30,740 nt of DNA from Aquificaceae bacterium (GTDB lineage: Bacteria > Aquificota > Aquificia > Aquificales > Aquificaceae), in NCBI GenBank assembly GCA_015490155.1, contig WFYI01000105.1, positions 1-30,740 on the forward strand. Reading direction: 5' to 3'. The first letter of the stretch is position 1; every line of letters starts with the position of its first letter. Position numbers: made by a program. Shown here in pieces: positions 18,001 to 24,000 of the stretch.

Positions 18001-21000
18001 CCACCCGGAGCTTACGGGTATAGAGAACGTGTACAACTACTCTACCCTTTACGGGCTTTCAAAGGGCGAAGTGGACAGAAACCTCGACTTTATAAGGGAG
18101 TTTTCGGAGCTTGGAGAAGCTCTAAATCAGCCCGTAAGAACCTACTCCTCGGGAATGGTGGTTCGGCTTGCCTTTTCGACGATAGTATCCATCAAGCCGG
18201 ACATTTTCATAATAGACGAGGCGCTGTCTGTAGGGGATTCCCACTTTCAGAACAAGAGCTTTAAGAGAATAATGGAGTTTATAGCTCAGGGGGGAACGGT
18301 GATATTTACTACACACAACCAGTATCAAATCACGGGTATATGCGGTAGAGCGATGTGGCTCAAAGATGGCAAGGTTCAGGAAATCGGAAACTCTACGGAG
18401 GTAGTAAAGGCTTACGAGGACTACATGAGACAGAAGGATTTAAAGGAAGAGGAAAGGAGCTTTAACCTTGAGAAAAACAAGGACACCTACATATCCGGAA
18501 TGGAGCTTTCCCATAAGGTAATAACTCCGGGAGATGACTTTCACGTAGAGTTCAGCGTTTACTCGAATAAGGAGTTAGAGGTAGTACTAACCTTAGCCTT
18601 TAGGAGAAACGATAACGAGTGGATAGCTTCTATCTCATCGAGAGAACTGGGACAGAGGATACTTCTTAGGAAAGGTGAAAACCATTTCCGCTACGAGGTT
18701 CCGAACTTTCCCATACTTTACGGCTCTTACTTCGTTCACATCTACCTCCTGAACGAGGAAGGAGTTATAGCCTTAGACGAGAAAATAATTCCCATCGAGG
18801 TTGTAAAAAGAAGTTTCATGGACTTTGGAGTGTTCAAGCTAAGGGCAAATCTGAGGAGTGTAACCCAATCCCCCCAAAAGCTCCGATAGCTTCCTCAGAG
18901 CCTTTCCCCTGTGAGATATCCTGTCCTTTTCCTCCGGACTAAGCTGAGCCATGCTTCCCTCGAAGCCTTCGGGTTTGAATATGGGGTCGTAGCCGAAGCC
19001 TCCCTCTCCCCGTTTCTCCTCTAATATTTCCCCTTTACACTCTCCCTCCGCAAATAAACCCTTATCTCCCGTGTACAGAACCACACAAGCCACGAACTTA
19101 GCGCCCCTATCTTCAATACCTTTCAGGAGCCTGAGGAGTTTTCTTATGTTAGCTTCGGTAGCCGACGGCTCGGGAAGTTCCTTACCGCCGAAGTCCAATG
19201 CGTAGAACCTGCTCGAGAAGATGCCCGGGTACCCCTGCAAGCTGTCCACCACGAGGCCCGAATCGTCTGCGATTGTGGTAAGCCCAAACTCTTTGTAGTA
19301 AGCACAGGCTTTCAGATACGCGTTTTCTAAGAAGCTCGTTCCACTTTCCTCCACTTTAAGCTTGCGTTTTGGCTCAACCACCTCAAAGCCCAAAGGCTCC
19401 ATTATCCTTTTTATCTCTTTCAGCTTTCCCTCGTTCGTTGTGGCAGCCAGAACCCTCATCTTTTCCACAGGCTCTTTATCTTAGCCCAAAAGCCCGTTTC
19501 TTCGTACAGAATAGGTTTTTCTTCGTAAACAAATCTGTCCAGAAAGTTGTCAAGAAGTATGAACCTATCGCAGGTTTTCCTGAGCTTAAAGGAGCTTGTC
19601 TTTTTGAAGGTGGCATTTTCTACCCTTTTACCTATGCTCTGGAGCGTCTCTACGGTGTATATAAAATCGCTATCCCCACTTACAAGGAGAGCCGTATCGT
19701 AAGCGTCTCTAAAGGCAAGGCTCAACATATCTGTGGCAAGCATTATGTCTATCTCTTTCTCTATAAACTCCCCCGAGGGGAGTTTCCTAAGATGGGCTAC
19801 CTTTACCTTTATTCCTGCCAACGAAAGCTCGTCTAAAAACCTCTTCTGCCTAACGAGGCTCTCCCACTCCGGTGAGCCTTTTCTCACGTCCTTATCCTGG
19901 GGCATACCGGTGTAAAAATACGCCCTGAGGAGTTTTCTATTCTCCTGCAGAAAGTCTACAAGCCTCGGATAATCTATCTTTATGTTCAGGTACCGTATTC
20001 CGTGAAAAAGGTTAGAGCCATCTATAAAGATGGCGAGACGCTCGTCGTTCATACCTTAAACCTTAGGATAGCGGCTAAGCCATCTATCCTTTTTCTTATG
20101 TCTTCGCTTACAACTATCTCTACCTTTGCCCTTTGCTCGAGAGCTTCTTCTATAACCTCATCGACTATATCGGACACGGGAACAGCTTTCTCACCCTCTA
20201 TGGGGCATTCCGGACTTAGGAGCGGTAAACCGCTCTCTAAACACAGGTATCCCGGTTTCTCAAAGTCCTCGGGAACCATAAGAGTTCTGATGTTTCCGTA
20301 AGATAGCATCTCCAAAACCTTGCTTGTTCCATTCACAGCCAGTCCTTTGCCCTGAAGCTCTTCAAGTTCCCTATATAGGCTTTCCTCCTCCTGCCTGTCT
20401 CTCTCTCTGAGAAGGGTTAAAACCTTTTCCCTAATTACTGAAGGTGTTGCCTCTGTAGGATTTACATCTATGTACCCGATTAACCTTTCTCTAAGGTAAG
20501 TGTGCAGGTGGTTCTCTATATCTCTTAGTCCCTCTTTTGTAAACCCGCCTATAACGAGACTGTCGAACCTTCTCTCCTTCCAGTCCTCGAATAGAGCGTC
20601 TGCGGCAAGTTTCAAGAGGGCATGCCATTCGGATTTTATCCTCATGTGGAAGTTGTACTCGCCGAAAGAGTGCTGTACCATGTTCGGAGCAGCCTTTCTC
20701 GAGGGCATACTAACCTTGAAGGTTCCCTGCGCCCCCTTGAGAACCTTACCACCGCTGTGGAATTTATGAGTCCTTGTGGTTAAGGGTTGGAACATGTCAA
20801 TAACTTCCTCGGTAGCCTCTATGTCGAGGACAAAGTACCGTACGCGTTTTCTGTCGATTAGCAAAACCGCTACGCTCCCGAGCTCCTCGTCTATAGCTGC
20901 TATTTCCCTTATAAGGGGATTGGGAGCTACCATAAGCCTGTTTCTGTAAGCGTAGGGTAACTTTACAGCCTCAAACACTCCCTTCCCGGAGCAAGAGAAA

Positions 21001-24000
21001 ACGGCTATCGCCCTACACCCCCGCAGATTGTCAGGCTCGGATATAAAATTCTCAATCCTTGAGAAATCCTCGTTTATAGAGTTCAAAGCCTCTTTGTTCA
21101 AATCCCTGCCTTTTAAGTCTTCCTTCTCTTCTTTGACCATATCCTTGTAAAGGATTAAGTACTTGTTGTTTTGTCTGTCTTCTGGCTCAAGTTTAAGGTA
21201 AAGATTGGTTACCATGTAGTCTTCCGGTTTAAGGCTTGTAAGCCTTTCCATAACTTGCGGCAACACGCTCATGCTCTCCTCCTTTCCTGTTTTATATCTT
21301 ATTTTACAGACAAAGCCCCTTGACTTTTTGTAAACTAATGTTTACATTAGATAATATGAATATAGCGATTTTATTATTCATGTTTCTTGGGATTTTTGGG
21401 GGAACCTCGCAGGGTATAGACAAGGAAGAGCTTAGGAAAGGCTACGAGATATACAAGAACACATGTTCCGTGTGCCATATTGAGAGTGTATCCCTTATGG
21501 ACTTTGCGAGGGCGAGGATGCACGTTTTAAAGGGTGAAAAACCGGACATGGACGCACCTCCCATGAACTTAGTAGCTGCAAAGATAAGGCAGTACTACCC
21601 TAGGGAATTAGAGTTTGTAGAATTCGTTAAGGATTACATCACCCACCCTTCAAGTAAGAAAGGCGTCTGTAACAAGGCAGCTTACAGCTTCTTTGGTACC
21701 ATGCCCCCCATAGGGGAAGGCATGAGCAATAGGGAAAAGGAACTTGTGGCTAAGTGGATGTATTACAACTTTGAAGGAACGTGGCTGGAGATATTCCTCA
21801 AGGTGAAACAGTTAGAGAAAACCACCCACTCAAAAAAGTGAATTTACGAAAAGAGACGGTCTCCCATATCTCCCAATCCCGGGATTATGAAGCCCTTAGA
21901 GTTCAAACCCTTATCTATCTTAACTACGAACAACTTATGCTCGGGAAAGCTATCCTGTATTCTCTTGACGCCTTCGGGTGAGGATATTATGTGCAGGCTA
22001 AAGGTTCTTAATGGATTTAAAGAGAGGATTTCCCTCAACGCTACCTCAAGTGTCCCGCCTGTGGCTAGCATGGGGTCTAAGATTATCGCCGTCTTTCCTT
22101 CCAAGCTCGGCAGGCGCGAATAGTATACCTTCGACGCTAAAGTTTCCTCGTCCCTCTTTATTGCCAGGAAACCTGAGAGGGCGTTGGGTACCACTTTTAA
22201 GGCACCTTCGAGCATGGGCAAACCCGCCCGCAGTATTGGGATAAACACAACGCTTTCCTCGTTAAGAAACCCAAACCTCTCTTTACCCGTCCAGATATCT
22301 ATATCTCTTTCGTTCAAAGGCGTATCCTTGAGCGCTTCGTAGACCATAAAGATAGCTATCTCAGACAGCAAGTTTCTTAACTTTTCCCTCGGGGTACTTA
22401 TGTCTCTGATAGTGTTGAGCTTGTGTATTAGGATGGGATGTTTAAGCTCTTTAATCAATTTAGTTTTAACAAGTGAGCCGGGCGGGACTCGAACCCGCGA
22501 CCAACGGCTTAAAAGGCCGCTGCTCTACCGACTGAGCTACCGGCTCTTCGGAACCGACCCCTAATGGAGCCGACGGGACTTGAACCCGTGACCTCCGACA
22601 TGCCATATCGGCGCTCTCCCAACTGAGCTACGGCCCCGAGCGTACTCCAAGGGAGATAAATTTTATAACACCTGCACCCTAAGTGCAAATCTAAATGGTA
22701 GGTGGGTAGTTTGCATAATGGATGGCTTGTACATACAGTTAGCTTGGGTTCGGATATATCGGCTGAATTAGGGGCTGATTTTTCACCACAAGGTTTTTAA
22801 ACCCCACTGCCGCTAAATGATACTTTAAGAAGGCTCTTATAAAAATTCACTGAATCATTGCAAGTGTAAGCAACTCATTCCTGGGCATGTTAGTTTCTTA
22901 GGCTAATGCCATCTGGTTAGCTAACTACTATTTAAATTCAGGCTGTACAAACCTTTACTCTGTAGGATAATATTTCGTCGTGAAAGTCAGGGTAGGTGTA
23001 ATCGGTTGCGGAACGGTAGGAACGGGAACGGTAAAGCTGCTTTTGGAAAACAGAGATGTTCTTGAGAAGAGAATAGGTTTCCCGATAGAGGTGTCTAAGG
23101 TTGCGGACTTGGATTGGGAGAGGGAACGGGAGTTTGAAGTTCCTCACGCCTTGCGAACCACCGATTACAGAGAGGTTATAGAGAACTCCGAGGTAGTTGT
23201 GGAACTCGTGGGCGGAACGGGCTTTGCCAAAAAGGTAATTCTGGAGGCTCTGGATAAGGATAAACATGTTGTTACCGCCAACAAGCACCTTCTTGCCGAA
23301 GAGGGTGAGGAGATATTCCTAAAAGCCAGAGGGAAAGGACTTAGAGTGGGATTTGAAGCCTCCGTCGGAGGCGGGATACCCGTTATAAAGGCTCTCAGAG
23401 AAGGACTTATAGGAAACAGGATTAAGAATATATACGGGATACTTAACGGAACCACCAATTACATACTTACCAGAATGTTTGAGGAAGGACTGGACTTTGA
23501 GCAGGCTCTCAAAGAGGCTTCCGAAAAGGGATACGCAGAGGCAGACCCGAGTCTTGATATAGACGGCTGGGACGCCGCCCACAAGATTAACATCTTAGCT
23601 TCCATAGCCTTCGGCAGGTACTTTGAGTTTGGAAAAGTCCACGTGGAGGGTATAAGGAACATAGACTCTTTGGACGTGGAGCTGGGCAGAGAGCTGGGCT
23701 ACACCCTAAAGCTCTTAGCCATAGCCAAGAAGTTAGACGGAGAGGTAGAGGTCAGAGTTCACCCTACCTTTTTGCACACCGAGGAGCCTTTAGCCAAAGT
23801 GTCTTCCGTTTACAACGCCGTTATGATAGAGGGGGACTTCGTAGGAAAGACCATGTATTACGGCAGGGGAGCCGGTTCTCTACCTACAGCTTCCGCCGTG
23901 GTGTCGGACATAATTGACATAGCTAGGGGGATAGTTGCCGGGGGCAAAAACCCCGAACCCATGCCCGTTGATTGGGAGAGCGAAAAGATAACTTTGAAGA

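Follow-up and report, generated by a model that had tools for sequence, protein, structure and literature searches.

A Balon-like member of the aeRF1 superfamily and a LabA-type NYN protein are encoded as a conserved gene pair in the Aquificaceae

What might a bacterium do with an eRF1-like protein that lacks the GGQ motif, and does it matter that the gene for this protein overlaps one for a predicted ribonuclease? The question is raised by three adjacent genes in contig WFYI01000105.1 of an Aquificaceae bacterium (assembly GCA_015490155.1), analyzed here over 30,740 nucleotides (nt), the whole of which we call the window. The first-pass annotation of this DNA described three minus-strand genes joined by ATGA stop/start overlaps, the first preceded by a strong Shine-Dalgarno sequence. 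Open reading frames (ORFs) and the sequence itself agree with this layout, and all three proteins match curated families. The elements are as follows.

20049..21272 (including the stop codon), minus strand: gene 1, Balon-like factor of the aeRF1 superfamily, 407 amino acids (ORF and Pfam)
19456..20052, minus strand: gene 2, LabA-type NYN protein, 198 amino acids (ORF and Pfam)
18839..19459, minus strand: gene 3, rdgB, 206 amino acids counted from the ATG (ORF, Pfam and NCBIfam)
21278..21287, minus strand: Shine-Dalgarno region GGAAAGGAGG of gene 1 (read from the sequence)
20049..20052, minus strand: ATGA stop/start overlap of gene 1 and gene 2 (read from the sequence)
19456..19459, minus strand: ATGA stop/start overlap of gene 2 and rdgB (read from the sequence)

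The GGAGG core of the Shine-Dalgarno region occupies 21278–21282, with a spacing of 5 nt from the ATG of gene 1. The longest-ORF call for rdgB begins earlier than the ATG listed, at a GTG at 19468.

The factor encoded by gene 1 and the NYN protein encoded by gene 2 form a two-gene cassette that is conserved family-wide in the Aquificaceae. We put at roughly 0.5 the probability that this cassette couples a Balon-type A-site factor to a LabA-type NYN ribonuclease, with rdgB a mere neighbor. The ATGA overlaps are in themselves a weak sign of coupling, because overlaps are frequent in the window: they are seen in 11 of 18 adjacent gene pairs on the same strand, a count based on longest-ORF starts, which inflate overlaps. 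For that reason the evidence for coupling is conservation across genomes and not the ATGA. One genome per species was surveyed by tblastn and gene-order analysis, which gave 59 loci; the neighborhoods of more distant relatives were sampled one protein at a time. The NYN gene lies directly 3′ of the factor gene, mostly with a 4-nt overlap, in every Aquificaceae-type locus that has downstream DNA, one (L029) excepted. The genes flanking the pair vary, and nothing but the pair itself is constant from one locus to the next. Of the two proteins, the NYN protein is the better conserved (67–90% identity, against 55–73% for the factor). The pair is kept where the factor is only 50% identical (L051) and where it is 45% identical (P0242 in L064–L066); in the latter loci the overlap is 13 nt and the NYN protein is 62% identical to that of the window. 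The pairing of an eRF1-like protein with an NYN protein is therefore conserved in other genomes; the first-pass annotation would have been refuted had it been confined to this one.

The same survey does not extend this conservation to rdgB, which had been regarded as a coupled part of the module. It follows the NYN gene only in the Aquifex/Hydrogenivirga branch (about 19 loci); in Thermocrinis, Hydrogenobacter and Pampinifervens, ribF stands in its place and is equally tightly packed. Because its linkage is limited to one branch and ribF is found elsewhere, we regard rdgB as a passenger, a lineage-specific neighbor within the transcription unit that lies outside the conserved cassette. Gene 3 itself encodes an ordinary member of the RdgB/Ham1 family, the pyrophosphatases of non-canonical purine nucleoside triphosphates (deoxyinosine and xanthosine triphosphate, dITP/XTP), with matches to Pfam Ham1p_like (1.6e-57), NCBIfam PRK14824 (NF011399; 291.2 bits against a cut-off of 267) and TIGR00042 (181.4 against 145.35).

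The one Aquificaceae-type locus that lacks the NYN gene, L029, comes from Sulfurihydrogenibium yellowstonense SS-5 (gcontig_164, 1760–2741) and holds a Thermocrinis-like factor gene followed by about 1 kb of AT-rich DNA. This downstream stretch has no ORF of at least 80 amino acids and differs in composition, and low-GC genes lie beyond it. Because the downstream DNA is AT-rich, non-coding and of different composition, the contig is probably chimeric or contaminated, which would explain the exception.

To which branch of the eRF1-like proteins does the factor belong? Pfam places residues 119–284 in baeRF_family12 (PF18856, 5.8e-18) and baeRF_family10 (PF18854, 3.4e-10), and residues 294–407 in eRF1_3 (1.2e-7). 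The protein has the three-domain architecture of the aeRF1 superfamily, with an N domain, a middle domain of RNase H fold that carries an extended loop, and a C domain of the Pelota/eRF1_3 type. When an AlphaFold2 model built from 19 homologs (predicted local distance difference test score, pLDDT, 83.5; predicted template modeling score, pTM, 0.78) was compared with the PDB by Foldseek, the top matches were MSMEG_1130 (8v9j_z, 5.9e-20, template modeling (TM) score 0.62/0.68), Balon of P. urativorans (8rdw_B, 2.1e-17) and Rv2629 (8v9k_z, 5.7e-15), all of them ribosome-bound chains. Setting aside one aRF1 (4af1, 2.7e-17), the seven top PDB chains were all Balon, MSMEG_1130 or Rv2629. The alignments to these chains run over about 410 columns and all three domains, with TM scores of 0.57–0.69, and eRF1 and Pelota rank below them. 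These relatives are bacterial aeRF1 homologs without GGQ and NIKS that have been solved on ribosomes (Helena-Bueno et al., 2024; PMC10901736), so the earlier statement that no bacterial eRF1-like family had been characterized is outdated.

The relationship to Balon is visible solely through structure search and a broad profile. A direct sequence search of the PDB with the factor returned only the aRF1 4af1 (2.1e-4) and no Balon, and with a profile of close homologs the Balon match was still weak (0.076). A broader profile of 81 proteins, made from the window protein and its 80 nearest representative relatives, matched MSMEG_1130 at 2.7e-33 and aRF1 4af1 at 1.8e-29, in each case from end to end and across the N domain too, as well as Rv2629 (1.8e-20) and Balon (1.3e-13). 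In NCBIfam the factor gave sub-threshold but specific matches to the three equivalog models of ribosome hibernation factors, AOC03_06830 (Balon), MSMEG_1130 and Rv2629, and to the aRF1 model TIGR03676 (41.8 bits, cut-off 234.7); the pelota model TIGR00111 was not matched. Among the 81 nearest relatives, the Balon model was matched by 77 and the aRF1 model by 53, and none comes near the hibernation equivalog cut-offs (top E-value 4.7e-35). A full HMMER scan of representative proteins found 3082 with E ≤ 1e-3, of which 285 reach E ≤ 1e-30. Outside the Aquificaceae-type clades, most of the closest relatives have about 380 amino acids, and in many of them the profile match is split in two, with no match across the loop region. 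Gene 1 thus encodes a protein from the wide Balon/baeRF-1 radiation (Pfam families 10 and 12), a bacterial aeRF1 homolog without GGQ and NIKS that is structurally closest to Balon. Its first identification as an eRF1/Pelota homolog lacking GGQ is borne out by Pfam, Foldseek, the 81-protein profile and an alignment of 115 homologs.

In that alignment, the densest conservation of the protein falls in the middle domain, where the GGQ loop would be.

20640..20774, minus strand: loop R167–R211 of gene 1, middle domain, at the position of the GGQ loop (conservation across 115 homologs)

The loop follows the pattern R.H.FH.GG..L.GA.G......P.R........H..GE..F..R. and is 45 residues long in 114 of the 115 full-length homologs; in the segment that holds it (residues 165–212), 17 of 48 columns are at least 98% conserved. 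By comparison with the corresponding stretch of eRF1, HGRGGQSALRFARLR, the flanks are recognizable and the factor has about 27 extra residues after the GG. The two glycines (174–175) are invariant, and the next residue, 176, is S, A, G, T, K or R. The loop contains no invariant glutamine: residue 182 is E in 86 homologs and Q in 29, and residue 200 is Q in 98, R in 15, and A and E in one each. Canonical peptidyl-tRNA hydrolysis by this protein is therefore unlikely, as judged from the alignment. In the AlphaFold2 model the loop is disordered (pLDDT below 50 at residues 167–205). Within this segment, H169, H172, H201 and E205 make up a histidine/acidic cluster with the spacing HxxH...H...E.

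In the baeRF-1 families that lack GGQ, the equivalent loops are usually poorly conserved and of unconstrained length (Burroughs and Aravind; PMC6514570). The loop of the factor is the opposite of this norm, an argument that it meets a specific, conserved partner. If the lasso loop of Balon is a guide, that partner would most plausibly be the 23S rRNA at the peptidyl-transferase center.

The two outer domains were delimited as follows.

20883..21272, minus strand: N domain of gene 1, residues 1–130 (full-length profile alignments to 8v9j_z and 4af1)
20052..20402, minus strand: C domain of gene 1, eRF1 domain 3/Pelota-like, residues 291–407 (Pfam eRF1_3, 294–407)

The N domain had initially been called unrelated to that of eRF1. 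Because the broader profile aligns over its full length, N domain included, to MSMEG_1130 and to 4af1 at the E-values given above, sequence comparison identifies it as a homolog of the aRF1/Balon N domain, from which only the NIKS loop is missing; the equivalent loop (about residues 50–62) is variable. The motif KLPYxY+xR (residues 104–112) and the dipeptide RE (122–123) are invariant or nearly so across the 115 homologs. Matches to Pelota are confined to the middle and C domains, and the N domain is not of the Sm-like Pelota type.

In the C domain the AlphaFold2 model predicts a two-strand insert (strands 341–344 and 363–366); the same insert of two β-strands has been described before (Burroughs and Aravind; PMC6514570). 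Broader relatives have the consensus CxxCG...CxxCG at this insert, and archaeal aRF1 likewise has a zinc ribbon. In the factor, C344 and C356 (GYLC...PECP; about 20205–20243, minus strand) are the sole cysteines left at the site, which is a degenerate zinc ribbon or possibly a thermophile disulfide.

Is the partner likely to be an active nuclease? The sole Pfam match of gene 2 is to NYN (PF01936, 8.3e-30, 104.6 bits against a cut-off of 24.2). Its structure model (pLDDT 86.9) was matched by Foldseek to VPA0982 (2qip, 6.4e-12, TM 0.69/0.83) and to the NYN domains of MARF1 (5yaa, 6fdl). The LabA-like COG1432 group has VPA0982 as its reference structure, and neither a function nor a substrate is known for its bacterial proteins (PMC5499597). 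MARF1 is a proven Mg/Mn-dependent endonuclease of single-stranded RNA, with six residues that are essential or conserved: D178, D215, D246, D272, N181 and S270 (PMC6217404). Their places in the fold are taken in gene 2 by D11, D53 or D55, D102, D127, N14 and S125, in this order. The active-site set of gene 2 therefore reads D11, N14, D53/D55, D102, S125 and D127, plus D108 and D129, and lies at the ends of strands 1, 2 and 4 and the start of helix 3, as in MARF1. Conservation is complete at D11, N14, D102, D108, D127 and D129 and at least 90% at D55, so the acidic catalytic set, on which the nuclease call in the first-pass annotation depended, is intact. Gene 2 is accordingly a predicted metal-dependent ribonuclease with a complete NYN active site. 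In PADLOC it has domain-level matches to HEC-09 (6e-16) and NYN (1.3e-12), and the factor has no match there.

After a disordered linker, gene 2 ends in a conserved short helix, FWxKIKxLWK(R) (residues 188–198; 19459–19491, minus strand), which is absent from the divergent 177-residue NYN protein of L064. The idea that it is a membrane-targeting amphipathic helix was dropped, as its hydrophobic moment is not outstanding. Identity of gene 2 with the protein-only RNase P of Aquifex (HARP, PIN_5, PF08745) was ruled out by the lack of a PIN_5 match; a separate PIN_5 gene is present in the related locus L061. Orthologs of gene 2 have other neighbors elsewhere. Two examples are L060:5001–5672 and L061:5001–6631. 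In one lineage an ortholog about 59–62% identical immediately precedes yidC, a place that in bacteria normally belongs to rnpA/yidD, and rdgB is found some 4 kb further upstream; in the other, 0.5 kb separates the ortholog from a downstream PIN_5 (HARP-type, RNase P-like) gene. Among relatives of the factor, the gene for P0241 (40% identical; L067:2523–4559) has an acylphosphatase gene after it and then a stand-alone rplL, which encodes bL12, the stalk protein that touches EF-Tu in Balon complexes.

In 38 related Aquificaceae loci a further gene, here called c2, of about 400 codons lies 1–57 nt upstream of the factor gene on the same strand (for example L024:4771–5976, L002:4802–5971 and L008:4773–5972). 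Its product, which has no Pfam match, combines four hydrophobic segments with a long coiled coil; about 100 residues at its C terminus form a conserved domain with the motif FKLK..GGRIY...W.V.G....E..K.K.RY. With a profile of the C-terminal domain, the top four PDB matches were E. coli RelE at E-values of 0.009–0.02 (hhalign probability 19%); this domain is weakly RelE-like in sequence, which we treat as a lead and not a finding. At the locus, c2 is absent from the window and from its closest relative, L001, where a divergent cytochrome c-like ORF and upp lie upstream instead. The window ORF at 3488–4693 was considered as c2 and rejected; the tblastn match was to the coiled coil only, and the protein has a transmembrane segment at each end, as in the Wzz type.

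Two further features of the window lie close to the upstream side of the operon.

21320–21841, plus strand: divergent cytochrome c-like ORF (Cytochrome_CBB3, 5e-5), upstream of gene 1
22473–22546 and 22565–22637, minus strand: tRNA-Lys(UUU) and tRNA-Ala(GGC), between upp and hom (Rfam)

The TTG start of the cytochrome c-like ORF at 21320 is probably too early, as a signal-peptide-like sequence, MNIAILLFMFLGIFGG, starts 12 codons downstream; the later start would give an AT-rich shared promoter region of about 83 nt upstream of gene 1. At the other end of the operon, the 3′ end of rdgB (18839–18889) runs 51 nt into a convergent ABC-transporter ATPase gene (17705–18889, plus strand). Because these 3′ ends overlap, no terminator is possible between the two genes. 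Promoter and terminator scans of the window performed no better than on shuffled sequence, and an Rfam scan found the two tRNAs and nothing else. The wider context was read from 26 called ORFs, namely the three genes of the operon, the cytochrome c-like ORF and 22 others, a set that leaves out a few short ORFs, including a cluster at 4.7–8.5 kb. The scanned genes are ordinary or housekeeping: upp, hom, a peroxiredoxin gene, SurA-like genes, murI, and genes for an aldehyde dehydrogenase, TldD, a TrmFO-like protein, an ion exchanger, a pilin-like protein, the ABC ATPase, a sigma-54 two-component pair and RsgA. No defense or mobile genes were found among these 26 ORFs of the 30-kb window, and the GC content of the operon is that of its surroundings.

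On the reading that we favor, EF-Tu would deliver the factor, as it does Balon, into the A site when ribosomes are idle or stalled. The N domain of the factor would touch the decoding center, probably through the invariant KLPYxYRxR/RE patch, and the invariant, basic, His-rich GG loop of 45 residues would lie against the peptidyl-transferase center. Since peptidyl-tRNA would not be hydrolyzed, translation would be parked and the active sites of the ribosome shielded. The NYN protein, produced in step with the factor, would cut single-stranded RNA in the same physiological state. Its likeliest target would be mRNA, either still bound to parked ribosomes or already freed from them, and its cleavage would leave vacant stored ribosomes and expression shut down. 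We infer the functional link between the factor and the NYN protein from gene linkage only.

Several observations weigh against this reading. The factor lies outside the three experimentally studied hibernation-factor subfamilies and far under the cut-offs of their equivalog models (55.7 against 330, 44 against 480 and 21.8 against 320 bits). Its residues 1–130 contain no His-Pro dipeptide, and the invariant RE aligns to IHPL of MSMEG_1130, where the position of the His-Pro motif is itself placed by inference, the text of PMC10901736 giving no residue numbers. The loop is far more constrained than the "inactive" baeRF-1 loops, so that a catalytic or other specific role is possible. Many Balon loci differ from the present one, in which no hpf/raiA or stress gene was found among the 26 scanned ORFs. 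The linkage also has its limits. A sister clade (L042–L046, L072; 49–50% identity) has the factor without the NYN gene, between convergent genes, and there is no adjacent NYN gene in the distant relatives P0241, P0243 and P0247 or in two Gemmatimonadota loci. Orthologs of the NYN protein (60–65% identity) are encoded at other places, in one case ahead of yidC and in another behind a phosphoglucomutase gene. Finally, overlaps are common in the genome, and the gene after the NYN gene overlaps it too, whether it is rdgB or ribF.

These limits of linkage favor the view that the two proteins have no functional link and that their genes are merely packed together in a compact genome, the factor being a stand-alone hibernation factor and the NYN protein a housekeeping enzyme of tRNA/rRNA maturation. 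Both genes are unlinked in the sister clade and elsewhere, whichever gene follows the NYN gene is equally tightly packed, and the 11 overlaps among 18 pairs in the window belong to the same pattern. The NYN protein is also more conserved than the factor (67–90% against 55–73%), as a housekeeping enzyme would be, and bacterial NYN genes often adjoin tRNA/rRNA maturation genes, a role in RNA maturation having long been proposed (PMC5499597). However, mere packing fits poorly with an adjacency and an order that outlast divergence to 45–50% factor identity while both flanks reshuffle, or with a pair that is the sole constant unit of the loci; we think it possible, if on the unlikely side. Alternatively, the cassette might serve a rescue process akin to no-go decay, in which the factor senses stalls on damaged or truncated mRNA and recruits or licenses the NYN protein, whose cut at the stalled ribosome would fall in mRNA, or in tRNA or rRNA, while other factors recycle the ribosome. 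The fold is within the Pelota/aeRF1 superfamily, and the ribonuclease partner is conserved and translationally coupled. In most relatives the operon is headed by c2, which encodes a membrane-anchored protein whose C-terminal domain weakly resembles RelE, an A-site mRNA nuclease. An NYN enzyme of Bacillus subtilis, Rae1/YacP (NYN_YacP, PF05991), is an mRNA endonuclease dependent on the ribosomal A site, where it cuts mRNA. ArfB is absent from the Aquificae (PMC6514570), which leaves room for another rescue route. Yet the N domain is of the aRF1/Balon type and not the Sm-like mRNA-channel probe of Pelota, and the nearest solved relatives park ribosomes and do not rescue them, binding independently of mRNA (PMC10901736). 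Neither a splitting ATPase nor any further rescue partner is linked to the pair, and sister lineages keep the factor with the same invariant loop but without the NYN gene. Rescue of this kind is unlikely. Only slightly less doubtful is the more ambitious proposal that the two proteins make up a physical, ribosome-directed RNA-cleavage machine. In it, an A-site-docked factor would position or activate the NYN protein on arrested ribosomes as a bacterial counterpart of Pelota and no-go decay; in most Aquificaceae the machine would be a membrane-associated three-gene unit headed by c2, and the His-rich GG loop would possibly have chemistry of its own.

The constraint on the loop also bears on whether the factor is an active, specialized release or peptidyl-tRNA-processing factor in which the His-rich GG loop would do the work of GGQ, comparable to Vms1-type eRF1 relatives that act on tRNA. 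The loop is the most conserved part of the protein and of fixed length, with GG, H169, H172, H201, E205 and R211 invariant; constrained loop length is typical of active families (Burroughs and Aravind; PMC6514570), and in public annotation these proteins are called "peptide chain release factor 1." Such activity nonetheless seems very unlikely to us, given a loop with no invariant glutamine, a TIGR03676 score of 41.8 bits where 234.7 is needed, a variable NIKS-equivalent loop and top structural matches to non-catalytic Balons. A toxin-like pair that targets translation was an alternative raised in the first-pass annotation. In a toxin-antitoxin or anti-phage pair the NYN protein would be the toxin and the eRF1-like protein its regulator or sensor, and the PADLOC matches of the NYN domain point in that direction. 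This reading finds no support in the locus and is disfavored because the neighbors are housekeeping genes, with no mobile or defense genes among those scanned, the GC content is ordinary and the factor has no PADLOC match. Single-copy vertical inheritance, synteny conserved across a bacterial family and NYN orthologs without partners in sister lineages make it more improbable still, and we give it almost no weight.

Coupling of a Balon-type factor to an NYN ribonuclease, the reading that we prefer, would bear on how ribosome storage is understood. The usual view of hibernation factors is that they protect ribosomes from nucleases, yet across this family a relative of Balon is made in lock-step with a nuclease. 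The pairing suggests that cells may coordinate ribosome parking with RNA removal, or that the task of some Balon relatives is RNA surveillance and not storage. The long invariant loop offers a defined target for asking what GGQ-less relatives of eRF1 do at the peptidyl-transferase center, and the proteins are those of thermophiles with cultured representatives (Hydrogenobacter, Thermocrinis, Aquifex, Hydrogenivirga), which makes them good subjects for structural work. If the link is mere gene packing, the finding shrinks to one further member of the Balon family. The kind of protein is already known from the baeRF-1 survey of 2019 (PMC6514570) and from Balon in 2024 (PMC10901736). In a full-text literature search no paper connected eRF1-like proteins of bacteria with NYN, and NYN is not mentioned in the main texts of these two papers or of a 2025 preprint on the evolution of hibernation factors. 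In the same main texts, Aquificae go unmentioned in PMC10901736 and the preprint and appear once in PMC6514570, for the absence of ArfB; neither these texts nor the full-text searches yielded a description of the invariant 45-residue loop.

How, then, does the cassette compare with known systems? Balon binds the A site with EF-Tu, independently of mRNA, and is a hibernation factor found in roughly 20% of bacteria; its features include an N-domain His-Pro motif that touches A1492/A1913, a lasso loop, a bL27 trap and a β-hairpin insert in the C domain (PMC10901736). A factor of this type is expected to inhibit translation and to be induced by stress. With the Balon-type factors (PDB entries 8rd8, 8rdv, 8rdw, 8v9j, 8v9k and 8v9l) the factor shares its three domains and the replacement of the GGQ loop by a distinctive one; the two-strand insert of their C domain has a predicted counterpart in it. 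It differs from them in being only 14–16% identical and in its loop, which is longer, invariant and His-rich, and it has RE at the position aligned to the His-Pro of MSMEG_1130. Many Balon loci contain raiA/hpf or stress genes, a frequent but not obligatory association, whereas gene 1 is coupled to an NYN ribonuclease. With aRF1/eRF1 the factor shares homology over the full length, including the N domain, the GG, a downstream F..R helix and a remnant of the zinc ribbon; unlike them, it lacks the catalytic glutamine and NIKS, carries the insertion after the GG and falls under the TIGR03676 cut-off. If the pair cooperates, a GGQ-less member of the aeRF1 superfamily plus an endonuclease would resemble Pelota/Dom34 with the no-go-decay endonuclease, as a functional analogy only, since the N domain is not Sm-like, matches to Pelota are weaker than those to Balon and aRF1, and the nuclease family differs.

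Gene 3 is like any other RdgB/Ham1 protein, its sole oddity being its position. Gene 2 has the same fold and the same acidic active site as LabA/VPA0982 and the NYN domains of MARF1. It differs from these in standing alone, its 198 residues ending in the FWxKIKxLWK helix and including no OST-HTH/LOTUS or other RNA-binding domain. Rae1 shares the NYN fold, and its example shows that an NYN enzyme can be tied to the ribosome. However, Rae1 is itself the protein that enters the A site, and it belongs to PF05991, which is not matched by gene 2; in the Aquificaceae cassette a separate, putative A-site factor is encoded beside the nuclease.

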